Shown: positions 3,837 to 45,905 of the stretch, piece after piece
Layout: the number at the start of each line of letters is the position of its first letter
How positions within the stretch are numbered: position 1 is the stretch's first letter
IMG/VR virus record: IMGVR_UViG_3300043413_000021
Span: 1 to 56,001 of that record
Strand: one strand, 5' to 3'
From: a virus
Lineage: Duplodnaviria; Caudoviricetes
Length of the DNA stretch: 56,001 bases
Notes under the pieces: generated by a model
What the model was told of the DNA's origin: nothing
Database searches by the model: none
The model's input: the letters and a program-made list of their open reading frames with translations, nothing else
Translations under genes and position numbers: made by a program

Positions 3837-4080
3837 CCCACCCCCAACCCCAACATTCTCCCCACCTTCCCCATCCCTAACCCCATCATCCACACCCTCA
3901 ACAAAAACCTCAACCTAAGCCTCCTCCTCATCCTCCTCCTCATCCTCATCCACAAACCTCAAACCATCATCATACTCCTCAAACCCATCCTCAAACACAT
4001 CCCCAGCCTCCACAAACACATCCTCATCCTCATCCTCAAGCCTAAGCCTCCGCATCAACCACAAACCCACCCTCAACCTC
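3837..4080. repeat. C/A-rich low-complexity tract (cctcat/cctc repeats, C3-C5 runs)
   Basis: The plus strand is almost devoid of G over about 240 bp in an AT-rich genome. Confidence 0.8.
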
Positions 4081-4094
4081 TTAGAGGAGGGCAT
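3915..4094 (-). CDS. Putative 59-aa highly acidic mini-protein (below the ORF-track cutoff)
   Basis: Hand translation: MPSSKRLRVGLWLMRRLRLEDEDEDVFVEAGDVFEDGFEEYDDGLRFVDEDEEEDEEEA*. It may be a by-product of the strand skew. Confidence 0.35.
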   Translation of the reverse strand: MPSSKRLRVGLWLMRRLRLEDEDEDVFVEAGDVFEDGFEEYDDGLRFVDEDEEEDEEEA

Positions 4095-4520
4095 ACACTA
4101 TACAGGTAGGTAGTGGCTTGGGTTTTCAAAATTGCTAACGGTGTACCCCTATTTTTTTGTTATTGATTGATTGATATTCTTGATAAGAATAATAGCTATC
4201 GGGTCCTAGGTATGTGGGGAAACTGCAATTGTATTTTTTTCATTATTTAAAAAGCAGGCGGCTGGTGGTGGTCTATTTATACTATAGCAGTTATTGGGGG
4301 ATATTAGGCTTATGGCTGGATTGTAATGGTTGTTTGACTAAGATATACTGTTAATGTTTTGTTATGGCTTATTTGGGGCTTATATTGGCTTATATTCAAT
4401 GCATTTTTTTTGGGGGGTATTGTGGGTATTGGACTTGAGCGTAATTATTTATTTGATTGGCTTGATTACTTGGTTGATTGGTTAGGTTGGTTAGATTGAT
4501 TGGTATAGAAGGGAAGGGGG

Positions 4521-4830
4521 GTAGAAAAATTAGAAAAATTAGAGTTTTGGGTATTAGAAAAATTAGAGTAATTAGAAAAATTAGAGTTTTAGGGGTTAGA
4601 ATAATTAGAATAATTAGAAAAATTAGAGTTCGGGATATTAGAAAAATTAGAAAAATTAGAAAAATTAGAGTTCGGGATATTAGAAAAATTAGAATAATTA
4701 GAAAAATTAGAGTTCGGGATATTAGAAAAATTAGAATAATTAGAAAAATTAAAATTTGAGGTGTTAGAAAAATTAGAAAAATTAGAAAAATTAAAATTTG
4801 AGGTGTTAGAAAAATTAGAATAATTAGAAT
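4521..4830 (+). repeat. Tandem array: 9-bp ATTAGAAAA/ATTAGAATA subunits in about 7 higher-order units of exactly 42 bp
   Basis: The variant spacer recurs at 4541, 4583, 4625, 4667, 4709, 4751 and 4793. Confidence 0.95.
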
Positions 4831-4862
4831 ATTGTTATATATTTGCATTCTAATTATTCTAA
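4815..4862 (+). promoter_or_regulatory. TATATTTG promoter (4838-4845) flanked by a perfect 16-bp inverted repeat of the array unit; operator-like
   Basis: ttagaataattagaat (4815-4830) and attctaattattctaa (4847-4862). Confidence 0.6.
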
Positions 4863-4873
4863 AAATTCTAATT

Positions 4874-5311
4874 ATGAAAGAGAAAATAAAAGGTATTGTA
4901 TTTGATTTTAAAAGTATTGGGTGGAGTTTTCAGCGAGTAGAAAAAGAACTAGGGTTTTCAAATGGAAGTATTGGCAAAGTTATTTTAGGTAAGTCTGGTA
5001 TATCTGAATTTAGATTTTTGCAGTTGGAAGAACTTTATAAAAAGCACTTCCCTGAAAAATTTACTATTAGTGAAGAAGTGAATAATTTGCCAGAAAATGA
5101 TGAAATTGAAAATATTGGTTTTAGAGCAGAACCCCCAAAAACGGAAATAATGAATAAGCAATGGTTTATTAATAATGCCCCAGATAGATACGAAGCACCA
5201 TATAAAATAGCAGACTTTAGAAAACTAATAAAAGAAAGCTATATCCTATCAAAAAAAGAATCCACCGAACTAATAGCAGCACTAGATAATGGACTTCTTT
5301 TTAAAGATTAA
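4874..5311 (+). CDS. XRE/Cro-like HTH DNA-binding protein (likely start MKEKI at 4874)
   Basis: WSFQRVEKELGFSNGSIGKVILGK fits an HTH_3-type pattern. Confidence 0.55.
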   Translation: MKEKIKGIVFDFKSIGWSFQRVEKELGFSNGSIGKVILGKSGISEFRFLQLEELYKKHFPEKFTISEEVNNLPENDEIENIGFRAEPPKTEIMNKQWFINNAPDRYEAPYKIADFRKLIKESYILSKKESTELIAALDNGLLFKD

Positions 5312-5389
5312 AATTACCTTAAAAATTCACATTATGTTGAAAACTACCAATAAAAATTATAATCTTTGCTTTGTTTATAAAACTAGATA

Positions 5390-5794
5390 ATGGCAGTATT
5401 AAATAAATTCAGTAATTCCATACTTGTTAATAAGTACAAGATTGCGAAGGAAACATTGGACTTGTTAGTGAATGAACTAAACAAGAGAGGCATACCAGTT
5501 GATAGTGTTAGTAATATCGTAGAAGTAAACCCTAGTGATGTATTTGCGTTACTGCCTGTTAAACGGCTAAGGAGTAGGGATAGAGATTATATGCAATCAC
5601 AGCACTTACTACGGTACATTCTATACCGTAGATGCAATATGACACTAAAAGAGATAGGCGTACAGACGGGTGGTTTTGACCATACAACTATAATAAATAG
5701 TATTAAGCGTGCGGGGCAGCTATTGGAAACAGACGATAGCTTTATATCTATGTACGAATCTGCTATCGATAAGCTAGGTAATCAAAAAAAATAA
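5390..5794 (+). CDS. Stand-alone DnaA C-terminal (domain IV) DNA-binding protein
   Basis: RSRDRDYMQSQHLLRYIL...MTLKEIGVQTGGFDHTTIINSIKR matches the DnaA domain IV signature (SLxEIG..FGGRDHTTV). Confidence 0.8.
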   Translation: MAVLNKFSNSILVNKYKIAKETLDLLVNELNKRGIPVDSVSNIVEVNPSDVFALLPVKRLRSRDRDYMQSQHLLRYILYRRCNMTLKEIGVQTGGFDHTTIINSIKRAGQLLETDDSFISMYESAIDKLGNQKK

Positions 5795-5831
5795 AAAAAT
5801 GAATCTAACAGGGGTCGCTAAAATGACCGAT

Positions 5832-5960
5832 AACGTCCCCGGCTTGCCGAAGTTGGTGAGTTCAAGGCTCAAATGCTCGGCAGCAAAATGTAAAAAAGAT
5901 GATTAGAAATATACAAACCATAGCGGATTCTACTGCACCAATTTTGGCAAACCCCATGTT
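5832..5960. repeat. attC-like hairpin A1
   Basis: AAC 5832; inner arms cttgccgaagttggtg / caccaattttggcaaa; GTT 5958. Confidence 0.8.
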
Positions 5961-6765
5961 GCCCGTTGGTGCGGTGAGTTTAAAACGCTTTATATCATTT
6001 AGCGGTGGCGTTGAAAGTACCACTATGTGTATTCTTTACGGTAAAGGTGCAACTGCTATATGGTGCGATACTGGTGCAGAACATGACGAAATGTACAAAA
6101 GAATTGATGATTGCGAAAAGGCATTAAAAGAAATTCATAAAGGCGATTTTGAATTGGTAAGATTAAAGGCTGATGTGAAAGTAAAAGGTAGTTGGGTTGA
6201 CAATTTAATTGATGCAATACTTGGATGGAAGTTTATGCCATCGCAGGGGCAAAGGTGGTGTACTGGTAAATTTAAAATCGCACCTATTGATAACTTTTTA
6301 AGTGAACAGGGCGAATGTGAGTTGCTTATTGGTTTGAACGCTGATGAAGAAACAAGGGAAGGGAATTGGGGATTAAAAGCCAATGTAAAATATGTTTATC
6401 AATTACAAGAAGATGGGCTTACCCGTGATGATTGTATTGAACTATTAAACCAATACGGGCTTAATCCTGACTTCCCGTTGTATATGAGCAGGGGTGGCTG
6501 CTTTATGTGTATTTACAAATCAATAGCAGAATATAAGGCTATGTACATTTTTGATAGAAAGACATTTGATAAAGTGTGGGCTATTGAGTTAAAAATACAA
6601 GACAAAAGGAAAAAATTATTTACCATATCTGTTAGCGGTAAGTCAATGACATGGATAGCGGCAGAGGTTGAAAGAGAGATACAAGGATGGGGTTTAGATT
6701 CGGTCAAAGGCTTTTACAAACAGATAGAACAAAAACAGGCTTGTGGTGCTTTCTGTCACAGGTAG
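5899..6765 (+). CDS. PAPS-reductase family (adenine-nucleotide alpha hydrolase) protein; cassette A1 cargo
   Basis: SFSGG PP-loop, DTGAE, RWCTGKFK, GLNADE and RGGCFMC motifs. Confidence 0.8.
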   Translation: MIRNIQTIADSTAPILANPMLPVGAVSLKRFISFSGGVESTTMCILYGKGATAIWCDTGAEHDEMYKRIDDCEKALKEIHKGDFELVRLKADVKVKGSWVDNLIDAILGWKFMPSQGQRWCTGKFKIAPIDNFLSEQGECELLIGLNADEETREGNWGLKANVKYVYQLQEDGLTRDDCIELLNQYGLNPDFPLYMSRGGCFMCIYKSIAEYKAMYIFDRKTFDKVWAIELKIQDKRKKLFTISVSGKSMTWIAAEVEREIQGWGLDSVKGFYKQIEQKQACGAFCHR

Positions 6766-6775
6766 CATGACGGGC

Positions 6776-6899
6776 AACGGTTTCGGGCTTTGCGAAGTGG
6801 CGGTTTTGAAAAATGTCAGCTTCAATATAGCACTGCTGTTCAATAGAATTACAAGGGTTCAAATTAGCACTTCACCCGCCATTTTGCAAAGCAAGTGTT
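6776..6899. repeat. attC-like hairpin A2
   Basis: AAC 6776; inner arms gctttgcgaagtggcgg / ccgccattttgcaaagc; GTT 6897. Confidence 0.8.
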
Positions 6900-6951
6900 A
6901 GCGGTTCGGGCTTCTCCGATTTTAGAAGTTCACAAATTAAATAACAAAAAA

Positions 6952-7449
6952 ATGTCAGAAACATTAACAGTAACTCGCCCGACTTGGAACGAAGAAATGC
7001 TAAAAGAACTTGCTCAAATCGTAGGTAAGCAAGTAAACGAATGGTGCAACGATGAAACACCGTTAGAAGATTGTATTGAAACAGCCGAAAAAGTGCTACA
7101 ATGGCACAGCAATGACAACGGATATGAACTTGCGAAAGAGTTTGATGATGAAGGTTTTTCACCCGATAGCGAACTGGTTGAAATTCTTGATAGTGTTTCT
7201 TATGATAGAAGTAAGGTTCAAGAAACATTTATTAAAAAATGGGTTGCTGATAATAACCTAAAACTTGAATTAGTTGAAGGTCAAAAAGTGATTGCAAAAC
7301 TTGTTCGTAAAGGCGAAGTTGAGGGTGAAATAGTAAAATTATATCCTGAAACTATGCAGTATGGTTTTTGGCACGAAGGTCAAGGATGCGAAAAAGGGGA
7401 AGGTCATACTTATGTCAATTTTGAAAACGTGGTGTCTGTCATAGCCTGA
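6952..7449 (+). CDS. Hypothetical acidic protein; cassette A2 cargo (ATG 6952, or GTG 6895 inside the attC arm)
   Basis: The ORF fills the cassette and has an A-rich leader before MSETL. Confidence 0.65.
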   Translation: MSETLTVTRPTWNEEMLKELAQIVGKQVNEWCNDETPLEDCIETAEKVLQWHSNDNGYELAKEFDDEGFSPDSELVEILDSVSYDRSKVQETFIKKWVADNNLKLELVEGQKVIAKLVRKGEVEGEIVKLYPETMQYGFWHEGQGCEKGEGHTYVNFENVVSVIA

Positions 7450-7454
7450 CCGAT

Positions 7455-7572
7455 AACGTTTTCGGGCTTGGTGAAGTAGCTAAACCCGAAGCTAAATAGA
7501 ATTACTAAGATTTAAAATTAAGAACGAATGATTGATATGATTACTAAACAGCCATTTTGCCAAACCAGTGTT
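7455..7572. repeat. attC-like hairpin A3
   Basis: AAC 7455; inner arms cttggtgaagtagct / agccattttgccaaa; GTT 7570. Confidence 0.75.
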
Positions 7573-7848
7573 AGTGGCAGTTATTATTTGGTTAGATATT
7601 GTGGTGGCTCGTATGATGACTATTATAGTGCTGTGGTTTTTGTTACCAATAAAAAATCAACTGCAACCAAATATTGCACTAAGTTTAATAAATTGCTTAA
7701 AAAATGGAAGAACCACTACAAGCAATTTGAAGCAGATAAATTTGGAATGAAATGGATTGCAGATGAACACATTGAAAAACACTTTGATAGGTGGAATAGT
7801 CTTGAAAATATAACCAAATGCTATTACGAAGAAGTGTCGTTTAGGTAA
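7528..7848 (+). CDS. Hypothetical protein; cassette A3 cargo (starts inside the hairpin loop)
   Basis: The ORF ends at the cassette's 3' arm. Confidence 0.6.
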   Translation: MIDMITKQPFCQTSVSGSYYLVRYCGGSYDDYYSAVVFVTNKKSTATKYCTKFNKLLKKWKNHYKQFEADKFGMKWIADEHIEKHFDRWNSLENITKCYYEEVSFR

Positions 7849-7856
7849 TTGCTACT

Positions 7857-7952
7857 AACGTTTTCGGGCTTGGTGTCTGTTATTTTGCCTTGCAGACACT
7901 TTAAGTTTACTACAAATTTAATAGGCAAAACAATAAGCACCAAACCGCTGTT
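7857..7952. repeat. attC-like hairpin A4 (close relative of B2)
   Basis: AAC 7857; inner arms cttggtgtctgttattttgcct / aggcaaaacaataagcaccaaa; GTT 7950. Confidence 0.85.
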
Positions 7953-7980
7953 AGTGGCTGGTGCGGTAAATTGAACTAAA

Positions 7981-8187
7981 ATGAGTAAAAAATTAAAAGC
8001 ATTAGCCTTAAGTTTTTTAGGCTGTATTATTTGGAGCGGACTTGTTTATATAGCAATAGCATTTTTGAAATCAGAATTAAACCCATTTATTTGGTCGCAA
8101 TTCACAAGAGGTGTAATGTTGTTTGTAATATCTTGCTATGTAGCATTTATTCCAGCAATAGTATTTGCTTTGAAAAACGAAATGTAG
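7981..8187 (+). CDS. Small two-TM membrane protein; cassette A4 cargo
   Basis: Two hydrophobic stretches in 68 aa. Confidence 0.6.
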   Translation: MSKKLKALALSFLGCIIWSGLVYIAIAFLKSELNPFIWSQFTRGVMLFVISCYVAFIPAIVFALKNEM

Positions 8188-8213
8188 CATCGCCACTAAC
8201 CGCACAAAAATAG

Positions 8214-8608
8214 ACACACACGATACAGATAGTTTTTCACAACTTAAAATAGTAACAATGGGAGTATTTTTTAAAGGGGGGCACATTAGCGGAAATTTCT
8301 GCAATATTACAAAAAGAAAACCTAAGGATTGGATTTATAATGGGTACAAAATAATTGTGCCTTACAAATTCAAGTGGAGGCATAAAATCGGTAAAGTTGA
8401 ATGCAATTGTAAAGTTTGCGAAGAACACTATCAGCCATGGTACGGCACAAGCTGGTTTCATTCTAAGGATTGCGCCCTGATGGAATACATTAATGCCCGC
8501 CCACAGATCTGTAACCTTGCGCAATATTACGAGAAAGATTTATCGCTAATCGCTCAAACTGACGAGTGTTAAGATTAACCACACACACGATACAGATAGT
8601 TTTTCACA
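8214..8608 (+). repeat. 28-bp perfect direct repeat (8214-8241 and 8581-8608) flanking ORF 8258-8572
   Basis: acacacacgatacagatagtttttcaca occurs twice. Confidence 0.9.
8258..8572 (+). CDS. Hypothetical Cys/His-rich protein (CNCKVC...H...C)
   Basis: ORF track; possible Zn-binding motif. Confidence 0.55.
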   Translation: MGVFFKGGHISGNFCNITKRKPKDWIYNGYKIIVPYKFKWRHKIGKVECNCKVCEEHYQPWYGTSWFHSKDCALMEYINARPQICNLAQYYEKDLSLIAQTDEC

Positions 8609-8798
8609 TTAATTCCATTTCAAGTTCATCTTGTGTAAGTGGGGTGCAATCTAACTTTATTATCATTTCATTTATGTTTAATAGTAAAGTACAATCGGGC
8701 ATTTTTTGTTGTTGTTTCGGTGGCAAATCTAGTTCATTACATAAACGTAAATATAATTGTTCATAGCTTTTTCTTCGGTTGTGTTTATTAGTTGTCAT
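8604..8798 (-). CDS. Hypothetical protein
   Basis: ATG with an A-rich leader; divergent from 8868. Confidence 0.4.
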   Translation of the reverse strand: MTTNKHNRRKSYEQLYLRLCNELDLPPKQQQKMPDCTLLLNINEMIIKLDCTPLTQDELEMELM

Positions 8799-8867
8799 AT
8801 TTTGTAATTAATGTTGCTAAAATAATTATTTTTAATCGGATTAAATTTATAATTAAAAGTTAAAAAA

Positions 8868-9059
8868 ATGATACAAAAAGTAGTTAAAAAAATTTGTGTA
8901 AACTTTGCGGAGTACATTGTAGTGAATGGATGGTCAGTAACGGATGGGTTTAAATGGATAAGACTATCCCATATACAAGATGCTCCAATAACTACTGAAG
9001 AACTTTTTGAACTTTTTAACAAAGAAGAAAGAAAAAGAATAAAAAAAGAAGTACCTTAG
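8868..9059 (+). CDS. Hypothetical protein
   Basis: ATG after an A-rich leader. Confidence 0.5.
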   Translation: MIQKVVKKICVNFAEYIVVNGWSVTDGFKWIRLSHIQDAPITTEELFELFNKEERKRIKKEVP

Positions 9060-9215
9060 CACTATATTAGTTTTCTGAATGAAGGGAGTCTTTCAGAGAA
9101 TTTAATGGTTGTATCAACCAGCCCCTCTTTGTCAACTCCCGATAAATTGGGGCATTTTTTTATAATAAAACAAAATTTAATTTAATAAAAAAATATTTGT
9201 TTTAAATAATTTAAT

Positions 9216-9223
9216 TAAGTTTG
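9216..9223 (+). promoter_or_regulatory. Bacteroidota promoter TAAGTTTG (with upstream TTTG at 9196)
   Basis: Consensus match about 20 bp upstream of the HTH gene. Confidence 0.55.
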
Positions 9224-9243
9224 TAATCCATAAAAATAAAAAT

Positions 9244-9444
9244 ATGAGTAAGATAAAAAAAGTAGATAATCTAAGACAGATTATTGATGAAGCTTTAGAT
9301 GGTAGAACTTATAAATGGTTGTGTGAAAAAACTGGCATCCATTCCACCCAAATGTCGTATATAGTTAATGGATTAAAGCCTAGTAAGAATAATCTATCTA
9401 AAATAGTTAAAGTATTAAAATTAGACCCTTCCTTGTTGGAATAG
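9244..9444 (+). CDS. Cro/XRE-family HTH regulator
   Basis: 66 aa; RTYKWLCEKTGIHSTQMSYIVNGLKPS is a typical HTH_3 pattern. Confidence 0.75.
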   Translation: MSKIKKVDNLRQIIDEALDGRTYKWLCEKTGIHSTQMSYIVNGLKPSKNNLSKIVKVLKLDPSLLE

Positions 9445-9458
9445 AGGTCTTTTTTTTT
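9423..9458 (+). terminator. Terminator-like hairpin after the HTH gene
   Basis: agacc...ggtct followed by a T-tract. Confidence 0.4.
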
Positions 9459-9824
9459 CTAAATAGGGTTCGTTATCAATTCCTACCCCGCTTTAGTTTT
9501 CAGATTTAAAAAGCAAATAGTTGAATTTTGTTACATATCCATATATATAAATCAAAAAGTGTTGGCAATGTTGTCCCCTTATAACCAACGACCTAAAAGA
9601 TTTAATAAAAAACCAGATTTTAATACTCGTTAGGATAGGCGAAGGAAAGGATAAGGTAGCAATGAAAAAGGGCATCTGAATTAACAAACACCCTTTTTAC
9701 CCCTAAAAGATAAGTAGATTACTACTTTGATAAAAAACATTATATCAAAGATAAGGAATAAACATAATCTTTTAGGGATAGAAAGGGGGTATTGTGTATA
9801 AAATAACAAAAAATAACAAAAAAA

Positions 9825-10160
9825 ATGGCAAAAAAATTAAAAAAAACTCCCGAATTGCCTTTTAAAAGTGAAAATTTTGAAATAATATGGAAAGAATATA
9901 TTACTCATAGGAGAGAGAAAGGAGCATCAAACTATACTCCAACTGGCTTAAATAGGGTGTTTAACGCTCTAATTAGGGATAGTTTAAATTCAGAAGAAGT
10001 TGCTATAAAAATAATAGAGCAGTCATTGGAAAAAAATTGGACAGGACTTTTCCCACTTAAAAATAATATAAAACATGGACAAACAACCACAACTTATTGG
10101 CAGCGTATTGGAATCGGAGGGATTAATATTGAAGGGAGTGCAAAAGAATCTCCGTTATAG
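9825..10160 (+). CDS. Replication-initiator-like protein (C-terminal-type domain only)
   Basis: FEIIWKEYITHRREKG..YTPTG...IIEQSLEKNWTGLFPLK resembles the C-terminus of phage replisome organisers; lies directly upstream of the DnaC-like ATPase. Confidence 0.5.
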   Translation: MAKKLKKTPELPFKSENFEIIWKEYITHRREKGASNYTPTGLNRVFNALIRDSLNSEEVAIKIIEQSLEKNWTGLFPLKNNIKHGQTTTTYWQRIGIGGINIEGSAKESPL

Positions 10161-10944
10161 TGAATGGGATTGGGTTGAGCTTACGGAAGATGAAAAAATA
10201 GATGCACTAGGGTATAGGCGTATGCTTAAGGGTACAGACCTTAAAAAAAGGCAAAAGGAAGAATACAATAGGCTTAAAATAGCGAAGCTTCAATCTCAAT
10301 GGACTTATGATGAATTAAGGGCTGAAATACTAAGTAGGGCTTTATCTGAACCATTTGAATTTGTAATAGATGAACATAATGAAAGGATAATACACCTTCT
10401 TTGTCTTTACTTTTCGGGGGATGAAAGGTTTAATAGTGAAAAAATAACATACCATAATGGGGAAGAAAGAAGCCTAAATTTAAGTAAGGGTATTGGTCTA
10501 ATATCTTCAAAAAAGGGTACTGGGAAGTCAATTTTAATGAAGTTATTTCAGCAAAACAAAAGAAGCCCATATCTAAAAATAGACACTAAGGATATTGCAT
10601 CCGAGTATAAAAAGAAAGGGGATGCTTGTATTGAAACATACTCAAACTTACTTTATATCCCACCTAATCCAACATTTTTTTGTTTCCAAAAAATAGGCAT
10701 TTGCTTTGACGAATTGGGGTATGAACTACCTAAAAATAACTGGGGAGATAAGTCCGATGTAATGGCAGATGTTCTATTTAATGTGTATAAGCAAAATCAA
10801 TATAGCGGGGATTATAGCAACTTTCATTTTACAAGTAACCTTTCAGGTCAAGACTTTGAAGGAAGATACGGGGATAGAATAAAAGATAGAATGAGAGAAA
10901 TGTTTAATGTTATTATTGTTTCAGGCGATAGTAGAAGAAAGTAA
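10075..10944 (+). CDS. DnaC/IstB-like P-loop ATPase (helicase-loader-like)
   Basis: Walker A KGTGKS, Walker B ICFDELG, FTSNL and YGDRIKDRMREMFN. Confidence 0.75.
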   Translation: MDKQPQLIGSVLESEGLILKGVQKNLRYSEWDWVELTEDEKIDALGYRRMLKGTDLKKRQKEEYNRLKIAKLQSQWTYDELRAEILSRALSEPFEFVIDEHNERIIHLLCLYFSGDERFNSEKITYHNGEERSLNLSKGIGLISSKKGTGKSILMKLFQQNKRSPYLKIDTKDIASEYKKKGDACIETYSNLLYIPPNPTFFCFQKIGICFDELGYELPKNNWGDKSDVMADVLFNVYKQNQYSGDYSNFHFTSNLSGQDFEGRYGDRIKDRMREMFNVIIVSGDSRRK

Positions 10945-10955
10945 AATAAAATAAA

Positions 10956-11141
10956 ATGAAAAACGAATATAAAGTAGGAACTAAAAAATGTACTAGGTGC
11001 AAGAAAAATGTAGATGTTAATAGGTTCTACAAAAAAATAAGTTCATCTGATGGGCTAAGTTACCATTGTTTTGATTGTGAAAAAATAATGAAAAAAGAAA
11101 GAAGAATAAAAATGATGGAGGGTATAATAATAGCTTTTTAA
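10956..11141 (+). CDS. Small zinc-ribbon protein
   Basis: CTRC...F...DGL..HCFDC. Confidence 0.55.
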   Translation: MKNEYKVGTKKCTRCKKNVDVNRFYKKISSSDGLSYHCFDCEKIMKKERRIKMMEGIIIAF

Positions 11142-11191
11142 GGTAATTTTAATTTAGTATTTCAGAAAATATATTAAACTTTGCAATACTT

Positions 11192-11452
11192 ATGTTTGGT
11201 TTCAAAAAAGCAAAAAATATGAATTTAAGGGAACAGTTAGAAAAATTCATTTCATTATTTGGGTATAAAAGATGTTTCATGTGGGATGATATGATTACTT
11301 ATAAAATAGTTCATAGTTTATCAAAAGAAGTAATAAGGCAAGCAGAAGAAATAATACAAGATTACAATTTATATTTACTTGAAGTTCAAGTATTGGAAGG
11401 TAGTTCCGTTTTTTCTGAAATGCTAATTATTAGACAAAAAATATCTTACTAA
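11192..11452 (+). CDS. Hypothetical protein
   Basis: ORF track; lies in an operon. Confidence 0.5.
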   Translation: MFGFKKAKNMNLREQLEKFISLFGYKRCFMWDDMITYKIVHSLSKEVIRQAEEIIQDYNLYLLEVQVLEGSSVFSEMLIIRQKISY

Positions 11453-11454
11453 AA

Positions 11455-11964
11455 ATGTACAATAGCACTATAATATCCAAAAAAAAGAAACTTTTATGTG
11501 GTTGTTTTGATTACAATTTCAGTAAGGGAAGGTGTAAGATGCACGCTACAATAGAAAGCGCAAATAAAAGAATCGAAAAGCAAAAACAAATATCAACGGT
11601 TACCGTAAAAACGAAAGTTCAAGATACTGAACCAAAAGAAATGCAGCAATTTTGGGAGTATGCCAAAAAAGTTATAGAACAAAAACCTTATTGTTGGGAG
11701 TGTGGAGATTTTATTTCTCCAAAAGATTATAGGGCTTCCACTGCCCACATATTTCCCAAATCAATATTTCCTTCAATAGCATCCAATAAATATAATTTCC
11801 TAGTACTTGGTAATAGATGCGGATGCCATAACCAAAGCCATAGATTAGATACATTTAGTAAAATGAGAATATTTCCCACCGCAATAAATAGATTTATGAA
11901 ATTCGCAGAAGAAATAAAAGAAAACCACAAATACAAAAATACTTTTATTGAATTATTAAAATGA
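11455..11964 (+). CDS. NinG/HNH-like endonuclease
   Basis: CWECG...AHIFPKS...N...CGCHN beta-beta-alpha-Me pattern. Confidence 0.6.
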   Translation: MYNSTIISKKKKLLCGCFDYNFSKGRCKMHATIESANKRIEKQKQISTVTVKTKVQDTEPKEMQQFWEYAKKVIEQKPYCWECGDFISPKDYRASTAHIFPKSIFPSIASNKYNFLVLGNRCGCHNQSHRLDTFSKMRIFPTAINRFMKFAEEIKENHKYKNTFIELLK

Positions 11965-12050
11965 AAAAAATCAAATAACGTAAAGATCGGAATGGCACAA
12001 AACCCCATGTTACCTTCTGCCTTATTTGGTCGGACACAAACAAAAATAAT

Positions 12051-12803
12051 ATGGCTAAAAAGTCAAACATACAATGGACGGATGCAACTTGGAATATCGC
12101 CAGAGGTTGCACAAAAGTAGATGAAGATTGCAAATTCTGTTATATGTATAGGGATAGTTTTGATAATACAAGGTATAACCCTTTGCAAGTAACAAAGACA
12201 AAAACAGTTTTCAATTTGCCTTTGAAAATTAAAGAACCTTCAAAGATTTTCACTTCATCATTAACCGATGTATTTCACCCCGATTGCGATGCTTTCAGAA
12301 ATGAAATGTGGGATATTATTCGTAAATGCCCACAGCATACTTTTCAGCTACTTACAAAAAGACCTGAAAGAATTATAGATAATACTCCATCTGATTTATT
12401 ACAAGCTGATAACATTTGGTTTGGAACAAGTGTAGGAAGTGAAAAAGGCAAACAAAGAATTTACGATTTATTGAAAGTTGATTGCAAAACTCGTTTTATT
12501 TCCTTTGAACCTTTACACGAAAGAGTAGATATGAATTTGGATTTACTCGACTTGCTTAAAATTCATTGGGCAATTATTGGTGGTGAAAGTGGCAATGAAA
12601 CTGGTAAATATCGTTACAGACCTTGTAAGGTTGAATGGATGGAGGAACTTGTAAAAGACCTTACTGCAACCACAGCAATATTTGTCAAACAGATGGGAAC
12701 TCATTTAGCAAAGGAGTTAAATATGTCTGATAGGCACGGTGGCAACATTGATGAATTTCCGTCCACCTTGAAAATCAGGGAGTTTCCCAAAGGTAGCAGG
12801 TAA
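12051..12803 (+). CDS. DUF5131 (phage Gp37/Gp68) radical-SAM-like protein; cassette B1 cargo
   Basis: IQWTDATWN, GCTKVDEDCKFCY, SLTDVFH, FQLLTKRPER, SFEPL, IIGGESG and FVKQMG. Confidence 0.9.
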   Translation: MAKKSNIQWTDATWNIARGCTKVDEDCKFCYMYRDSFDNTRYNPLQVTKTKTVFNLPLKIKEPSKIFTSSLTDVFHPDCDAFRNEMWDIIRKCPQHTFQLLTKRPERIIDNTPSDLLQADNIWFGTSVGSEKGKQRIYDLLKVDCKTRFISFEPLHERVDMNLDLLDLLKIHWAIIGGESGNETGKYRYRPCKVEWMEELVKDLTATTAIFVKQMGTHLAKELNMSDRHGGNIDEFPSTLKIREFPKGSR

Positions 12804-12896
12804 CGGTTTGCGGCTTGGTGTCTGTTATTTTGCCTTGCAGACATTTCAAGCCTTAGATAAAATTTATAGGCAAAATAATAGCACCAAACCGCTGTT
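12802..12896. repeat. attC-like hairpin B2 (close relative of A4)
   Basis: Inner arms cttggtgtctgttattttgcct / aggcaaaataatagcaccaaa. Confidence 0.85.
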
Positions 12897-12924
12897 AGTG
12901 GCTGGTGCGGTAAATTAAACGAAA

Positions 12925-13194
12925 ATGACAAACGAAGAACAAATTAAAGAGCCTAAAGATGATTGGAAATTAAAATCACTTACGATTGAATTTAAAAAGG
13001 GATTTTCATTTGAAAACTCACAAGACAGATACGAGGGAAGTATTAAGTTTGAAAATGGAGAGAGTGAAAGTTTCCAATTCAAAGTAAGACCCGATATGGC
13101 TGATGACTATATTAAACTGATAAGCGAAGATATTGTTAAGTGTGCCGAATCTTTAGGCTCTCGATTGATAGAGTCTTTAGGATTACGGAAGTAG
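12925..13194 (+). CDS. Hypothetical protein; cassette B2 cargo
   Basis: The ORF fills the cassette from leader to 3' arm. Confidence 0.65.
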   Translation: MTNEEQIKEPKDDWKLKSLTIEFKKGFSFENSQDRYEGSIKFENGESESFQFKVRPDMADDYIKLISEDIVKCAESLGSRLIESLGLRK

Positions 13195-13205
13195 CACTTG
13201 CCACT

Positions 13206-13324
13206 AACGGTAGCGGTTTATGCAGGTGGGAATTGATGCACTTCCATTCGCAAACAACCGATGCCGAATAGAATTAATTAGTTGAGCATTTAGCGTCCAG
13301 CCCACTTGAATAAACCGCCTTGTT
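13206..13324. repeat. attC-like hairpin B3
   Basis: Inner arms gcggtttatgcaggtggg / cccacttgaataaaccgc. Confidence 0.8.
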
Positions 13325-13351
13325 GGCTGCTGTACGGTAAAAAATGCCAAG

Positions 13352-13389
13352 TTCTACTTTTTGTCAGTAGTTAATCAAGTTAAACAACC
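13352..13389 (+). repeat. 38-bp leader element, copy 1 (35/38 identical to 15254-15291)
   Basis: ttctactttttgtcagtagttaatcaagttaaacaacc. Confidence 0.8.
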
Positions 13390-13418
13390 GTCATTTTTAA
13401 ACTGTCAAACAATAATTT

Positions 13419-13655
13419 ATGAATATACAACCGAAAGAAAAAGCGCAAGATTTATGGCTAACTTATTACGAGTTATTGCCAGATGGAATATACTCAAATG
13501 AAGCTGCTAAAATTGAGGCTAAAAAGTTTGCTACAATAGCTGTCAATGAAGTTTTGGAAGCTACTAAAGAAGCTGTGTTACCTATGGGCGGTGCTACTGG
13601 TTATGATTATGATAGCTACTGGTTAGATGTCAAGTCTGAAATTGAAAAGCTGTAG
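13419..13655 (+). CDS. Hypothetical protein; cassette B3 cargo
   Basis: PKEKAQDL...A.IAVNEVL...YWLDVKSEIEKL; the ORF ends at the 3' arm. Confidence 0.65.
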   Translation: MNIQPKEKAQDLWLTYYELLPDGIYSNEAAKIEAKKFATIAVNEVLEATKEAVLPMGGATGYDYDSYWLDVKSEIEKL

Positions 13656-13665
13656 TATAGCAGCC

Positions 13666-13743
13666 AACGGATTGGGTATTTACGCAGGTGGCTTTTGTGG
13701 GTTGGCTTGTGTGTCGGCAAGCCACTTGAGTAAATACCTTGTT
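13666..13743. repeat. attC-like hairpin B4
   Basis: Inner arms ggtatttacgcaggtggctt / aagccacttgagtaaatacc. Confidence 0.8.
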
Positions 13744-13788
13744 AGCCGTTCGTTCTTTTTCGATTACAATTTAAAAAAAATTAGTAAA

Positions 13789-14208
13789 ATGTCAAAAAAT
13801 ATAGATTTATTAAAGCAAAAATTAAATGCAAAAACTTCGGAAGAGTTGTTTGGTATTACAGAGCAACCTCCACAACAATGTCCAAACATTGATAATGTCA
13901 TTCGTGATTTAGAAGGCACTTGTAAGCAAATTCAAAGTATAGCAAATGATATAAAACGAACTGATAATATAGACGATATTCCAAGTTTAGCTGGCGATAT
14001 TGATTGGTATTCAAGTGATATTGATAAGTCAAAAGAGTTAAATGAGTTGAGAAAGCAAATTGAGTTAGTTCGTGGTTGGGGAGAAGAATGGAAAAATTTA
14101 GCAAAATCTTTATTCAATAATATGAGTAAAGAGCAAGATATAGTACACCATTTTTCAAGTGAGTTTCAAATTAAATATGACGAGTTATGCGGTGTCGTTT
14201 TAGAATGA
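13789..14208 (+). CDS. Hypothetical helical protein; cassette B4 cargo (likely start MSKNI at 13789)
   Basis: The track ORF starting at 13627 runs through the hairpin. The ATG at 13789 has an A-rich leader. Confidence 0.6.
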   Translation: MSKNIDLLKQKLNAKTSEELFGITEQPPQQCPNIDNVIRDLEGTCKQIQSIANDIKRTDNIDDIPSLAGDIDWYSSDIDKSKELNELRKQIELVRGWGEEWKNLAKSLFNNMSKEQDIVHHFSSEFQIKYDELCGVVLE

Positions 14209-14213
14209 CGGCT

Positions 14214-14339
14214 AACGTCCAGCGGCTTTGCGAAGGCAAGGGATTAGAAGCACTAAACTTTAAAATTAGTACAAATGATTGATAGAAATACAAATGTTCA
14301 AATAATCGGTGAAGCCCTTGCTTTTGCAAAACCGATGTT
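14214..14339. repeat. attC-like hairpin B5
   Basis: Inner arms ctttgcgaaggcaaggg / cccttgcttttgcaaaa. Confidence 0.8.
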
Positions 14340-14556
14340 AGCAGCCGTTTATGTTGCTACTTGGCAAGAAGAAGGTGATGAACCATATCAGATACGGTCA
14401 GACGAATGTAAACCAAAAGATAAAGCAGGTGATTCTGATTGGTGGTTTGATGAAGAAAGTCTAATGTTTAGAAGATATTGGTCGTACCACCATGAAGAAT
14501 ATGGAAATCAATATGTTCATGATGAAGTTGATGCAGTCTTATTAAATGGCTGCTAA
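14275..14556 (+). CDS. Hypothetical acidic protein; cassette B5 cargo (starts inside the hairpin loop)
   Basis: The stop TAA is the TAAC of the 3' arm. Confidence 0.6.
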   Translation: MIDRNTNVQIIGEALAFAKPMLAAVYVATWQEEGDEPYQIRSDECKPKDKAGDSDWWFDEESLMFRRYWSYHHEEYGNQYVHDEVDAVLLNGC

Positions 14557-14574
14557 CACTTAGATTGACGAAAT

Positions 14575-14830
14575 ATGGATATGCAATACATTGAAAAAGA
14601 GAAAGATAACTATCTACTAAAATTGAATGGGGAAGATTATTTTTTCTCAAAATTATCACTATACAAATCAACACGTTTTCTACCTATAAAACCAATTTTG
14701 AACAATGGATCTTTGTCTTGGAATATTGGTAGTGAACTACCCACCCACAGCAAAGCTGATGAGTGGGCTTTCGCTCCCTCTATGTAAAAAAATATCTTAC
14801 AAACAAATTAAAAATTTAATACTAAAATGA
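14575..14830 (+). pseudogene. Small gene interrupted by a 52-bp insertion
   Basis: Removing 14732-14783 restores ...WNIGSKKISYKQIKNLILK* with its TGA overlapping the ssb ATG (ATGA). Confidence 0.55.
14732..14783 (+). mobile_element. Miniature IS200/IS605-type end-hairpin remnant
   Basis: gtgaactacccacccacagcaaagctgatgagtgggctttcgctccctctat; GC-rich palindrome beginning GTGAACTACCC. Confidence 0.55.
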
Positions 14831-15252
14831 TAAAAACAGAAGTAATAGGTCATTTAGGAAATGATGCAGTAGTAAATAACGTTAACGGTAAAAGTGTAGT
14901 TAACTTTTCGGTAGCCCATACAGAAAAATATAAAGATTCAAATGGAGTGGAAACAACAAACACTATTTGGGTTTCATGTTCTTATTGGGCTGAAAGAATA
15001 GGTGTAGCAACTTATCTTAAAAGGGGTACACAAGTTTATGTTGAGGGGCAACCTTCGTTAAAAACATACGTGGATAATCAAAATAAAACACAAGCTCAAC
15101 TAAGCTTAAGAGTAAGAAACATACAATTACTTGGAGGGGCAAAACAAGAGCAGGTACAACCACAGCAAAATAATTATCCATCCAATCCACAAGATGTATT
15201 AACCGATAAACAAAAAGAGTTTTTAGAGCAAAAAGATGATTTGCCTTTTTAA
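14827..15252 (+). CDS. ssb: Single-stranded DNA-binding protein
   Basis: IGHLGNDA, FSVA, YLKRGTQVYVEG and the C-terminal DDLPF tail. Confidence 0.95.
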   Translation: MIKTEVIGHLGNDAVVNNVNGKSVVNFSVAHTEKYKDSNGVETTNTIWVSCSYWAERIGVATYLKRGTQVYVEGQPSLKTYVDNQNKTQAQLSLRVRNIQLLGGAKQEQVQPQQNNYPSNPQDVLTDKQKEFLEQKDDLPF

Positions 15253-15253
15253 A

Positions 15254-15291
15254 TTCTACTTTTTGTGGGTAGTTAATCAAGTCAAACAACC
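15254..15291 (+). repeat. 38-bp leader element, copy 2
   Basis: ttctactttttgtgggtagttaatcaagtcaaacaacc. Confidence 0.8.
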
Positions 15292-15323
15292 CTCAACCTT
15301 TTTTTAAAACAAAAAAAATAAAA

Positions 15324-15647
15324 ATGGCTAAACTATCTAAACCTGTAAATGATTGGGCTAGGTGCTTAATTATATTACATAGTAATTACATGGCTGGGGT
15401 ATCTATGGCAAAAGTGCTTAATGTACTCCCACATTTTTACAAGTTTCAAACAAGACTAAAGGAGGTTGAAAAAGCCCACCCTAAACTAAAAATATCAAGA
15501 ACTATAATACCTTTTAAAAATGCTAAATTAAATAAAAACGGTTACTTTACACAATACACACTACTAAGCCCACCATCATACGTTATTAACCTTTACAATA
15601 AAATAAATAAAGAGGGACTTTATGGAGAAAAAAAAGATAAAAAATGA
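15324..15647 (+). CDS. Hypothetical basic protein
   Basis: ORF track; A-rich leader. Confidence 0.55.
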   Translation: MAKLSKPVNDWARCLIILHSNYMAGVSMAKVLNVLPHFYKFQTRLKEVEKAHPKLKISRTIIPFKNAKLNKNGYFTQYTLLSPPSYVINLYNKINKEGLYGEKKDKK

Positions 15648-15912
15648 TTTGCCAATAGAGTGGACTGGTAAGGCAAAGGAAATAGGCATGATTGAATCTG
15701 AACTCATGCACATAGTTTATGATTGCTCCATCCCAACATTAGAAGAAAGAAAAAATAAGGCACAAATATTTTATACTGCAAGGGAGGTTTCTGAACATTT
15801 AGGCGTAAAAATAGATACGGTATTTAGAAATAGAATAGCTAGTAAAAGAATAAAAGCATTAAATGGGAAGATGTATGCCGTTAGGGTGGCAAAAAATAAC
15901 CTAAACCAATAA
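15622..15912 (+). CDS. Hypothetical protein with a NUMOD1/HTH-like motif
   Basis: FYTAREVSEHLGVKIDTV. Confidence 0.45.
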   Translation: MEKKKIKNDLPIEWTGKAKEIGMIESELMHIVYDCSIPTLEERKNKAQIFYTAREVSEHLGVKIDTVFRNRIASKRIKALNGKMYAVRVAKNNLNQ

Positions 15913-15967
15913 CCGTAAACCAAATAAAGAATTAACTTTAATTAAATTTTTAGCAAAAGCATTAAAT

Positions 15968-16645
15968 ATGACATTAAAAGCAGCGCATGGGAGGTGTTTA
16001 CTTAAATGCGATTTGGATTTTAAAAACAACCATACTTTTAAAGATGGTACTACAATAAGGTTAGAAAGGAACGTTGAAAACCTTAATTATAGGGAAACGA
16101 TGCCAGTTCAAGCCGAATGTATAGAAGAAAATGGGGTGGTTCCGTTTGGAGCAATTGTATTATGCCATCATAATTCATTCCACCCAACTAATCAAGTATT
16201 TAATAGTTTATCTTTAAGTGGTGAAGAAATAGCTAGTGGGGTATCTATTTATTCCATCCCATTATCGGAATGCTTCTTGTGGAAAACAAAAGATATGAAG
16301 GAATGGGATGGGGTTAAGGGGTATGCCATTGCAGAAAGGGTATTTCAGCCGTATAATGGGATTATAGAAGGGATACTCCCAACTAAAATAAAAGATTCTC
16401 TTTATGTAAAAACTGGGTACAATAAAGGGAAAGTAGTAAGAACACTAAAATCATGCGATTATGAAATAGTGTTTAGAAACGAAGAAGGACAAGAGGAAAG
16501 AATAATTCGATTTCGCACGTCTTACCCAGAGCATAATGAAAGAGAAGAAGTGCTATTCATTGATGAAGAACTAACAAAAAAAGTTCTAAAAGGGGAGATA
16601 CTTGTAGGGCTAAATGAAAACAATTGTGGTATAATTTTTAAATAA
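15968..16645 (+). CDS. Hypothetical protein at the head of the packaging cluster
   Basis: 225 aa, GAIVLCHHN motif, two genes upstream of the terminase. Confidence 0.6.
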   Translation: MTLKAAHGRCLLKCDLDFKNNHTFKDGTTIRLERNVENLNYRETMPVQAECIEENGVVPFGAIVLCHHNSFHPTNQVFNSLSLSGEEIASGVSIYSIPLSECFLWKTKDMKEWDGVKGYAIAERVFQPYNGIIEGILPTKIKDSLYVKTGYNKGKVVRTLKSCDYEIVFRNEEGQEERIIRFRTSYPEHNEREEVLFIDEELTKKVLKGEILVGLNENNCGIIFK

Positions 16646-44546: not shown

Positions 44547-45905
44547 ATGGCTAAGATAACAGACCCCGATTTATTAGTAGTAGGTACTGAACTTACTATT
44601 GATACAACAAATAAAACATTTACATTAAATAGTGCGGGCAATATGACCCCCAAAGACGGTGTAACATTGCAAGCACTGTACTCTAAGATGGTGGAGTTAT
44701 GGACAACATCCACGTATAATAAATACCCATTCCCAATTTATACCATAGACGCACGTTCTGGGCAATTCCAGATAGGAACGGATGGTAGTCTTTATAACGG
44801 ATGGAAGCCCGCTAATGATGCTACAAGACAAATGATTCGTGATGCTGGATGGAGTGAATATTCGGTAGCGGGAGTACTAAATAGACAGTACGTTGGTATT
44901 GTAGCACTAGCATCGGGATTCCCTAACGGCTCACAGTTTTATTATCAAAAGGCTTCTGGGGGTGCGGCTACATCATTCACTTATACAGATTCTCCCAATG
45001 AGGGCATTCAAGTATTTGGGGATGCATCAAACGGTAATTTCGATAACAGAACGTATTTTAAAATGTTTTGTCGTGAGGCGAATTATACCTATGACGATGC
45101 AGTTCTTAGCGATGTCGGTGAAACGGCAACAGGTGCATTTAAAGTATCGTTACCTATTGCGGTTAGTTCTGATTTAAAGATTCAGGCTAACGATGCAACA
45201 GTAGCAGCTAATACACCATATATGGGCATTACGGTGGAATATTTTGGCACAAACCAAAACAGAACGATTGGCGGTACTGCATACCCATTCAGGATTATCA
45301 TTAACGGTAATAACGCAACGGCAGAGCAGATTTATACTAAGGTTCAGTACTTACTAAGACAGGCGGGAGATATAGACAACGGTGCGGGTACGGTTGCGGG
45401 CAAAACGGCTAACTCATTACTATACTTCGTTGGTGATACGCTATACACAACTCAAGGCGTGTATATTGATAATTACCAAGCCAATGATATTAACAGATTG
45501 GTATTTACAGACCAGAACAGTGTGCAACGTACAGAGCCATATACAGCCACTGGCTCACTTGTATTTAACACTCCACTACAAGGTGCGGGCGGTTATTACA
45601 GGATGTACTTCACAGCACTACCAAGTGCGGGTGATGACTATGGTGAGGCGGGTGCGGTAACGGTGAACAATGCAGCAGCGGCATCTATATCGGGGGCGAT
45701 AAGTGCGGGTAGTATTCCGTTCACATTCGCCTATGACAGTAATGTACAGGGCGGTAGAACAGCGGCGACAGATGCAGCGGTTACGATTGTAGCGGGTAGA
45801 CCAGGCAGTGCCAAACCAGTGGTAGCAACATTCACTATAACAAGGTCTACAGGACAGTTAATATCATTAGTAGCGGAACAAGATAGGGCGTATGTAAATC
45901 CATAA
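44547..45905 (+). CDS. Structural protein (putative appendage component)
   Basis: 452 aa, T/G/A-rich. The N-terminal T.NKTFTL...TLQALYSKMVELW resembles the start of the next gene. Confidence 0.55.
   Translation: MAKITDPDLLVVGTELTIDTTNKTFTLNSAGNMTPKDGVTLQALYSKMVELWTTSTYNKYPFPIYTIDARSGQFQIGTDGSLYNGWKPANDATRQMIRDAGWSEYSVAGVLNRQYVGIVALASGFPNGSQFYYQKASGGAATSFTYTDSPNEGIQVFGDASNGNFDNRTYFKMFCREANYTYDDAVLSDVGETATGAFKVSLPIAVSSDLKIQANDATVAANTPYMGITVEYFGTNQNRTIGGTAYPFRIIINGNNATAEQIYTKVQYLLRQAGDIDNGAGTVAGKTANSLLYFVGDTLYTTQGVYIDNYQANDINRLVFTDQNSVQRTEPYTATGSLVFNTPLQGAGGYYRMYFTALPSAGDDYGEAGAVTVNNAAAASISGAISAGSIPFTFAYDSNVQGGRTAATDAAVTIVAGRPGSAKPVVATFTITRSTGQLISLVAEQDRAYVNP

Follow-up and report, generated by a model that had tools for sequence, protein, structure and literature searches.

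A reusable shell around unrelated small genes marks probable integron-type cassettes in phages of Flavobacterium-type hosts

The creation of integron gene cassettes is an acknowledged open question, and its link to the use of a single type of attC recombination site has been discussed earlier, according to Cury 2016 (PMC4889954) and Ghaly 2021. A viral sequence now raises this question in concrete form. The window analysed here is a complete IMG/VR virus record of 56,001 bases (IMGVR_UViG_3300043413_000021; estimated completeness about 80%), A/T-rich at 34% G+C, with nearly all genes on the + strand. A first-pass annotation had noticed that two units in it, A4 (7860–8200) and B2 (12805–13208), enclose unrelated open reading frames (ORFs) between similar hairpins, leaders and tails, and had proposed that ORFs are captured or swapped into a reusable shell with start-to-stop precision. 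How did one shell come to hold two different genes? We report that A4 and B2 are two of nine cassettes in the window and most probably belong to an integron-type system that recombines single-stranded hairpins, in a phage of Flavobacterium-type hosts. The shell is one widespread lineage carrying at least 48 unrelated small ORFs, and the proposal about cassette genesis is partly supported.

The block at 7856–7984 recurs at 12801–12928 with 87% identity over 129 nucleotides (nt; E 6.3e-40), which bears out the common hairpin arms and leader first noticed. It consists of an 80-nt hairpin part (83% identity) and a 49-nt part ending in AAAATGA (96%); in both copies 31 nt separate the GTT that opens the leader from the ATG (7950 to 7981 in A4, 12894 to 12925 in B2). 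Alignment also confirmed that the sequences 5′ of the hairpins are unlike, ending in ATTGCTACTAAC before A4 and in GTAGCAGGTAAC before B2. The similar tails reported after the stop codons are there as well, and are opened by the stop codon itself: TAGCATCGCCACTAAC at 8185–8200 in A4 (16 nt) and TAGCACTTGCCACTAAC at 13192–13208 in B2 (17 nt). Both ORFs terminate at the TAG of the tail and both tails close with CCACTAAC; the A4 form is one base shorter than the B2 form, which is the standard in the wider family. Between these common ends lie an ORF of 68 amino acids (aa) with two hydrophobic segments in A4 (7981–8187; maximum over a 19-residue Kyte–Doolittle window, 2.56) and one of 89 aa in B2 that has no hydrophobic segment (12925–13194; maximum 0.56) and is 38% charged. 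The two proteins gave no BLASTP alignment at E≤100, and profile–profile comparison of small family alignments with hhalign returned a probability of 0.07%. The contrast drawn earlier between a membrane protein and an unrelated soluble one therefore stands, and remote kinship of the two ORFs found no support.

The spread of the shell was surveyed with an exact 23-mer across its GTT. Thirty-two other viral contigs and 96 metagenome stretches contain this 23-mer, and 80 of the latter were used; counting the window, the survey covers 113 sources with 116 copies, of which 97 differ from one another over 400 nt, although metagenome and IMG/VR contigs may overlap beyond the identical copies removed. 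Taking the longest ATG frame that starts at most 100 nt from GTT, 86 copies carry an ORF of at least 30 aa, and these fall into 48 cargo families of 44–142 aa that are unrelated by BLASTP (families joined at E<1e-3). Ten of the 11 copies that have no ORF of this size are truncated by contig ends, and no empty shell was seen among the 97 non-identical copies. The distance from the G of GTT to the ATG is 31 nt in 60 of the 86. Across the 20 families of the viral set, the fraction of the commonest base is 0.78 at −25 to −1, 1.0 at the ATG and 0.50 at +3 to +32; at the other end it is 0.49 at −50 to −18, 0.98 in the 17-nt tail and 0.45 past the AAC. Because these steps fall exactly at ATG and TAG, the similarity breakpoints in other copies are not random, and the shell is reusable in the sense first proposed: one leader and tail around 48 unrelated families.

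The two joints differ in what sets them. Scoring each family in one or more classes, we found that 28 of 48 families stop at the TAG of the tail; 11 lack a stop codon within the cargo and continue for four tail codons until the TAA of CACTAAC; four stop 1–12 nt earlier, two have a stop otherwise overlapping the tail, seven have no detectable tail and three show other arrangements. Since 11 families read into the tail and four stop early, it is the shell, rather than the cargo's stop codon, that fixes the 3′ joint. The proposed start-to-stop precision thus holds for the sharp steps at ATG and TAG but not for a 3′ joint that the shell itself fixes, and among these copies neither a swap event nor a capture mechanism was seen.

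Eight sites of one plan, with single ORFs between them, lie between 5800 and 14600. Each begins with YAAC and a G; after a few unpaired bases comes a G+C-rich stem whose outgoing and return arms enclose a variable loop, and three to four bases then lead to GTTR. A covariance model built from 25 sites (the eight in the window and 17 from four cultured phages) replaced two ad hoc stem scanners that had given too many chance matches. It returned exactly the eight expected sites in the 56-kb window, all on the + strand, and 134 sites in 37 sources, all but two of which are co-oriented within their own locus. Sites measure 83–150 nt, including flanks of 12–15 nt. The AAC and GTT boxes are invariant in the alignment (25/25) and the TAAC/GTTA form is present in 21–25 of 25 sites; the RYYYAAC/GTTRRRY form of attC boxes is not always kept, as in CACTAAC. 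The RNAalifold consensus has an inner stem of 11 pairs with a 5′ bulge, and compensatory changes support 10 of its 16 pairs. The sites therefore have the inner inverted repeat and variable loop of an attC site.

The flanks of the sites pair across the ORF. The first 9–10 leader bases behind GTT are matched, in reverse complement, by those that run up to the AAC beyond the ORF. When leaders in the window, the 32 viral contigs and the four isolates were compared with sequence within 4 kb, 82 of 97 had their best complement in the tail at the next site. Complementarity between the start of a cassette and its own end, as in attC cassettes, was observed in viral and bacterial loci alike. The 73 unique viral leader/tail pairs represent 51 different stem sequences: positions 1–9 are Watson–Crick in 70–73 of the 73, positions 12–14 are paired in 62–64, and position 11 combines a leader G with a tail T in 63 and is never Watson–Crick. 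Mismatches outside position 11, read on the ORF-sense strand, are wobble-compatible G·T in 21 cases and A/C in 6, which argues that this is the strand under selection to fold. No clear canonical extrahelical G or T was identified in the sites; instead they have the fixed G·T at position 11 and a one-sided bulge. Calculated with DNA parameters, the own tail, hairpin and leader of A4 fold at −25.0 kcal/mol, versus −18.7 kcal/mol for the junction present in the array, and those of B2 at −34.1 versus −23.5 kcal/mol. This better fold of a unit's own ends follows the logic of integron cassettes, in which excision as a circle unites both ends in a single site. As for the stop codon, 31 of 84 viral tails have TA at positions −16/−15, with G or A as the next base in 29 of them, and TA opens 11 of 25 bacterial tails inspected, with G or A next in only 5; this small sample hints that the stop codon sits where many sites of the superfamily have TA.

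Comparable arrays exist in bacteria. A degenerate 18-letter motif from the left flank matched at least 120 contigs of species-representative genomes, by their titles overwhelmingly Bacteroidota, where about 70 matches would be expected by chance at uniform composition. Covariance-model sites, 161 in all, are present in 63 of the first 80 of these loci, and no locus mixes strands. Bacterial leaders have the next tail as their best complement in 56 of 72 cases and G·T at position 11 in 58 of 72. The longest ATG-initiated ORF, however, lies on the strand opposite the folding strand in 58 of 72 bacterial cases versus 2 of 76 viral ones; in 74 of 76 viral cassettes the ORF is on the folding strand and the site precedes it. 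The classical attC order, with the crossover at G/TT of the ORF-sense strand and the ORF before attC, is accordingly kept in the bacterial arrays (58/72) and absent from the phage ones, and the phage cassettes are thus inverted. Because the same strand of the site carries the G in phage and bacterial sets, the G·T belongs to the site as DNA, rather than to the messenger RNA (mRNA). Contigs assigned to Brevifollis and to a Christensenellaceae metagenome-assembled genome (L091 and L097) also hold model sites, and such sites outside Bacteroidota may reflect mis-binning or a wider spread.

Five genomes were searched whole for sites and recombinase genes. In one, a complete Bacteroidota chromosome (G001, contig C1, the genome behind loci L114 and L176; array region C1:3486425–3986625), at least 150 scored sites share one strand between 3,486,425 and 3,982,508, about 0.5 Mb, alongside a count of 2,773 rough candidates; to our knowledge, this array may exceed any known integron array in size. 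A gene for a 371-aa tyrosine recombinase lies 3.3 kb past the last listed site and reads towards the array. A second genome has a homologue with sites within 1 kb after it, and in the other three the homologue stands at a contig end. These array-adjacent recombinases match PF00589 and PF13495 (SAM_4) and score 215–218 bits on the XerA/integron-integrase model (cut-off 220). On TIGR02249 (cut-off 265) the proteins of the five bacterial genomes reach 191–199 bits, in two stretches that skip model positions 181–237, which we take to be the place of the IntI-specific insertion; over all array-adjacent recombinases scored, the range is 150–199 bits. Among five large viral contigs, four have no recombinase of this family. 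One viral contig, and a near-identical relative on a 148-kb viral contig, encode a related protein of 271 aa (38% identity, E 2e-54) whose gene directly follows arrays of eight and nine sites in the same orientation (L279:413–5581; L280:71–5023), which amounts to a complete integron-like element on a virus. Genes for the recombinase are thus found beside very large Bacteroidota arrays and on a few viral contigs, and most phages carry arrays only.

Cultured phages revealed which unit moves. A megablast search of window positions 4000–16000 against cultured phages gave no match; with a 'distant' similarity search, 37 cultured Flavobacterium phages from the Baltic Sea proved to have similar sites. 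Two of these, lillamy9-1 and lillamy9-3, have the same length and are 98–100% identical over their first 8 kb except for one relocated piece of 444 nt, which consists of the G-hairpin, leader, a 95-aa ORF and tail. Its source joint is ACATAAC/G, and its new place is at the array end after GCTTATAAC/T. The joints share only ATAAC/TTATAAC, that is, 5–7 identical bases, and the target has no hairpin. The move is site-specific, and the crossover lies within the AAC box on the ORF-sense strand. Comparison of the four isolates showed that the hairpin stayed with the downstream ORF in 8 of 11 informative pairs in which the upstream neighbour differs, and with the upstream ORF in 1 of 12 pairs in which the downstream neighbour differs. 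Several cassettes in cultured Flavobacterium phages carry DNA methyltransferases (L036 4014–5787; L040 1649–6268), up to four of them in mumin6-1, and cassette trading may serve as an escape from restriction.

Contigs from other sequencing runs agree on where units end. In three runs (X2, X3 and X6, taken from the 23 of 24 runs that share just 6–11% of the window's words; contigs alone were compared, with gaps in coverage and depths given no weight) the likeness to A4 ends at 7859–7867 on the left and at 7972–7984 on the right, beyond which other coding sequence follows, and the likeness of an X3 contig related to cassette A3 ends exactly at 7859. No joint across A4 was seen in the run contigs, the only one encountered being an assembly-graph collapse of the two shell copies of the window in its probable source run. 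Elsewhere, one hairpin core precedes two different leaders (L040 3576–3642, in minus-strand view, and L039 6756–6870), and seven shell copies carry other hairpin cores; exchange therefore sometimes occurs at the GTT box too.

We propose the following model. A cassette would consist of hairpin, GTT-leader, ORF and tail-AAC. A Xer/IntI-like recombinase, usually the host's, would excise it by exchange on the ORF-sense strand at two AAC boxes, and in the presumed circular intermediate tail, hairpin and leader would meet as one long imperfect hairpin with an outer stem of 14–15 bp, the invariant G·T at position 11, AAC and GTT boxes, the 5′ bulge, the inner stem and the variable loop. Strand exchange in the AAC box of this folding strand would then place the circle at a different AAC box, in many cases the unoccupied one that ends an array. 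The shell would then have two parts: a recombination site opened up by the insertion, made of the hairpin, the leader's first 15 bases and the final 15–16 bases of the tail, and a spacer of 16 A/T-rich leader bases between this site and the ATG. The spacer would hold the start codon just beyond the stem, a role in line with what is generally known of Bacteroidota translation starts. We infer the enzyme acting on the phage arrays from its neighbours elsewhere, because neither the window nor the four isolates encode a PF00589 protein; going by that neighbourhood, it is likely a Xer/IntI-like tyrosine recombinase that has no IntI-specific insertion.

Several observations weigh against this interpretation. 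Recombination was not seen directly, and movement amounts to one event between two isolates; the linkage counts of 8/11 and 1/12 come from non-independent pairs, all within four related isolates. The covariance-model E-values are rough and its seed sequences fit by construction. A strict RYYYAAC...GTTRRRY scan with a stem filter returned no match, the boxes here being looser, and the model found no site in Polaribacter phage P12002L, where short look-alike sites of the same plan were recognized by eye upstream of methyltransferase genes. No PF00589 protein is encoded in the window, which is about 80% complete, or in the four complete isolate genomes, and by profile score the array-adjacent recombinases fall below the integron-integrase and XerA/IntI cut-offs and appear to have no IntI-specific insertion.

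The hairpins could act in early transcripts, in RNA processing, termination or translation control, with no mobility of the cassettes. They do stand just upstream of each ORF, fold on the ORF-sense strand in 74 of 76 viral cassettes and have mismatches compatible with G·U. Yet in the bacterial arrays the G·T lies on the same site strand with the ORFs opposite (58/72), so that the mRNA would carry C·A; a unit has moved between isolates, recombinase genes adjoin the arrays, and an Rfam search of 5600–14800 at E≤1 returned only one weak, unrelated match (IS009; 20 bits versus a gathering score of 117). An RNA-level role as the full explanation is thus very improbable, although the hairpins may have a side effect on translation. 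Somewhat less remote, yet still improbable, is that the repeats serve as homology patches for general or Red-like recombination. Promoter-early stem-loop (PeSL) mobile regulatory cassettes of T4-type phages resemble the present units in being small novel early ORFs that are bracketed by a conserved stem-loop and shuffled between relatives; their shuffling is attributed to homologous recombination. Conserved flanks between cassettes, occasional exchange of hairpin cores under one leader, and the YqaJ-type exonuclease and single-stranded-DNA-binding protein (SSB) encoded in the window would suit such a process. The moved unit, unlike PeSL cassettes exchanged through extended flanking identity, has joints of 5–7 shared bases and a target with neither hairpin nor repeat; homologous recombination requires neither covariation over 51 stem sequences nor an invariant mismatch, and further points of difference from PeSL cassettes are that the flanks here covary as one stem and that bacterial arrays of the same sites lie beside tyrosine recombinases.

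Strand-specific hairpins and insertion directly after a pentanucleotide that also ends the element recall 'peel and paste' single-strand transposition by an HUH enzyme of the IS200/IS605 type, here inserting 3′ of TAAC. The arrays adjoin tyrosine recombinases and not HUH genes, although HUH genes were not searched systematically, and head-to-tail arrays of hundreds of units are typical of integrons; we consider this origin the least credible of all. A simpler candidate, an intergenic palindrome in which a gene's tail pairs with the leader of its downstream neighbour, was rejected because leaders pair with the tail of their own cassette and because the moved unit includes the ORF.

With integron-type recombination as the preferred reading, the question of how the shell acquired its cargos can be put more narrowly. 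Cargo families and shells are not tied together, since the same cargo occurs in other, decayed or no shells. Relatives of the B2 protein exist as ordinary genes with no hairpin, leader or tail (L042 and L043–45), the likeness running from the same MTNEEQIK to the same last residues and not beyond, so that the search for non-cassette homologues suggested earlier did find some, with homology from first to last codon. Another has the tail but only the last ~10 leader bases (L041), one is in the same shell (L046), one is in a different shell, whose stem is compensated (GGGGC/GCCCC) and whose tail is preceded by 20 additional bases (L047/48), and one has no shell and different ends (L049). Relatives of A4 occur in the same shell (L050) and in a decayed one that has kept the spacer and a mutated tail and lost the hairpin (L051), and one ASCH-like cargo found in this shell family is 38% identical to a protein carried by another shell. 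Genes thus pass between the cassette and the ordinary state; these cases do not tell in which direction.

Three readings of the 48 cargos are open: dedicated genesis, the strong form of the first proposal, in which an attC shell is grafted onto an ORF, or ORFs are dropped into it, the start and stop codons serving as the joints; illegitimate capture, after which all dispensable bases are lost; and replacement of cargo in existing cassettes. Dedicated genesis would explain 48 cargos in one shell, the ATG at 31 nt in 60 of 86 copies, the TAG stop in 28 of 48 families and the sharp conservation steps, as well as the B2 cargo found shell-less, in half or decayed shells and in another shell, the likeness being limited to the ORF, and the ASCH-like cargo in two shells. 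A search of 401 genomes of the Flavobacterium calami family for the shell 23-mer, allowing up to two mismatches, gave no match, which is not proof of absence and suggests that the shell is made or kept in phages. On the other side, 11 of 48 families read into the tail and four stop 1–12 nt early; the survey contains no empty shell and no intermediate; and the decayed shells L041 and L051 attest traffic from cassette to ordinary gene with the direction left open. Moreover, the tail belongs to the recombination site, as its outer arm, so its conservation needs no argument from genesis; the same 15-nt stem with the same G·T mismatch also occurs in bacterial arrays, where the ORF is on the other strand. 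Both the read-through cases and the decayed shells speak against a mechanism that recognizes stop codons in themselves. More than trimming is suggested above all by the constant 31-nt length of the leader; loss of spacer bases under selection for compactness fits the same data. We regard dedicated genesis as a doubtful, if possible, account. More broadly, and just as tentatively, Bacteroidota phages might possess their own branch of integrons, with a reversed cassette pool made in or for phages by joining one site lineage to whole ORFs at or next to start and stop codons, and shuffled by host or occasional phage Xer-like recombinases that have no IntI domain. If so, same-shell cassettes, along with relatives that have half a shell or none, would preserve a fossil record of how cassettes are born and die.

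Several known systems share part of this design. The Vibrio cholerae repeats exemplify sedentary chromosomal integrons, whose cassettes have homogeneous attC sites. Such integrons likewise form head-to-tail arrays, with AAC and GTT boxes, two nested stems and a variable loop, a start core complementary to the inverse core at the end, and one type of site around many unrelated small ORFs. They differ from the phage arrays, in which the ORF is on the folding strand behind its site (74/76 viral cassettes), the outer stem is 14–15 bp with an invariant G·T versus 7 bp there, most genomes have no integrase and the associated recombinases have no IntI-specific insertion. That one attC type can surround unrelated ORFs is a long-known state of chromosomal integrons, as Cury 2016 (PMC4889954) states. 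The same paper describes 'inverted integrase' integrons, which resemble the Bacteroidota arrays in that the recombinase gene reads towards the array in the direction of the cassette ORFs, and which have a true IntI with the extra domain absent from the recombinases here; no integrase with that domain adjoins the present arrays.

Clusters of attC sites lacking an integrase (CALINs) have been reported in virulent phages, 17 in 10,705 genomes with 2–4 sites each, and one site of the CALIN in Polaribacter phage P12002L was recombined by IntI1 in an assay (Qi et al. 2023, PMC9892861, accessible portions). They resemble the present arrays as integrase-less attC-type arrays in lytic phages, including the Flavobacteriia phage P12002L, and have DNA methyltransferases among their cargo, as do lillamy-type phages; those portions of Qi et al. 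2023 hold no mention of ORF inversion, shell families, movement between isolates or host arrays. Nilsson et al. 2020 (PMC7077304) makes no mention of repeats, hairpins or cassettes beyond laboratory uses of 'repeat'. In the literature searched, we found no description of inverted phage cassettes, of shell families with junction statistics, of a long covarying outer stem with a fixed G·T, of cassette movement between cultured Flavobacteriia phages, or of large Bacteroidota arrays served by a recombinase lacking the IntI insertion. The phage setting, the inversion and the junction data appear to be new.

Cassette genesis becomes testable by comparison in this material: one lineage with at least 48 cargos, base-precise joints, cargo without shell, in half shells and in other shells, and a moved cassette in cultured phage–host pairs. 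The data suggest that integron-type recombination is a routine means of trading early genes, including DNA methyltransferases, in lytic Flavobacteriia phages, and that the phage cassette pool is inverted relative to that of the hosts. They further suggest that Bacteroidota, in which integrons are described as scarce (Néron 2022), hold very large arrays with a recombinase that standard integron finders would not call IntI.

In the window, the cassettes form array A, four units ending at 8200, and array B, five units ending at 14557; both finish directly after the AAC of a tail with no hairpin beyond, and all features lie on the + strand. Their cargo comprises a PAPS-reductase-like protein, a DUF5131 protein and seven ORFs without a Pfam family. 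Array A opens with attC-like site 0 (5823–5972; covariance-model match of 70.2 bits), in which AAC ends at 5834 and GTT starts at 5958, overlapped by the ATG of the following ORF. The body of cassette A1 (5956–6778) holds the PAPS-reductase-like ORF (5956–6765; PF01507, phrog_424) and a tail ending in ACGGGCAAC, which is the best complement of the A1 leader. Site 1 (6767–6911; 88.1 bits) leads to the body of A2 (6952–7457), made up of an ORF at 6952–7449 without a Pfam family and its tail, and site 2 (7446–7584; 102.6 bits) to A3 (7528–7859), whose ORF (7528–7848) starts within the hairpin loop and whose tail ends in TGCTACTAAC. A4, with its hairpin at 7860–7949 and leader at 7950–7980, is the last unit.

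Between the arrays, positions 8201–11985 hold no site detected by the covariance model. This non-cassette segment has a G+C content of 0.28–0.33 and includes O-like (9825–10160) and DnaC-like (10075–10944) replication genes. Array B begins with half a hairpin (11986–12024), the right half only with the left arm missing, followed by the B1 leader GTTACCTTCTGCC (12009). The body of B1 (12051–12804) holds the DUF5131 ORF (12051–12803; PF07505, 3.4e-53) and a tail ending in GCAGGTAAC; B2 follows, with hairpin 12805–12893 and leader 12894–12924. B3 (13209–13668) has its site at 13197–13336 and its ORF at 13419–13655; B4 (13669–14216) its site at 13657–13755 and its ORF at 13789–14208; and B5 (14217–14557) its site at 14205–14351, its ORF at 14275–14556 and its tail AAC at 14555–14557, with no hairpin behind. 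The B3 leader contains a vestigial ATG, separated from the real ORF by a 45-nt repeat (13349–13393) that recurs with 89% identity at 15251–15295. The two copies precede the B3 ORF and an ORF after the SSB gene, and the repeat may be a phage promoter or regulatory site.

Other repeats lie close to the arrays. Just past the end of array A, an exact 26-nt direct repeat (8216–8241 and 8583–8608) brackets an ORF at 8258–8572 and is another kind of flanking repeat than the cassette shell. Upstream of array A, positions 4480–4913 are densely filled with repeats of the TTAGAAAAATTAGA type, spaced by 9, 15 or 24 nt and with an inverted copy at 4847–4873. This field precedes an ORF (5390–5794) with a DnaA C-terminal helix–turn–helix and is probably a replication origin. 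Farther along the window, G+C content rises to 0.40–0.47 between 42001 and 46000, compared with about 0.33 elsewhere, over the large ORFs 41973–44543 and 44547–45905, and this region may be a recently acquired tail or host-recognition module.

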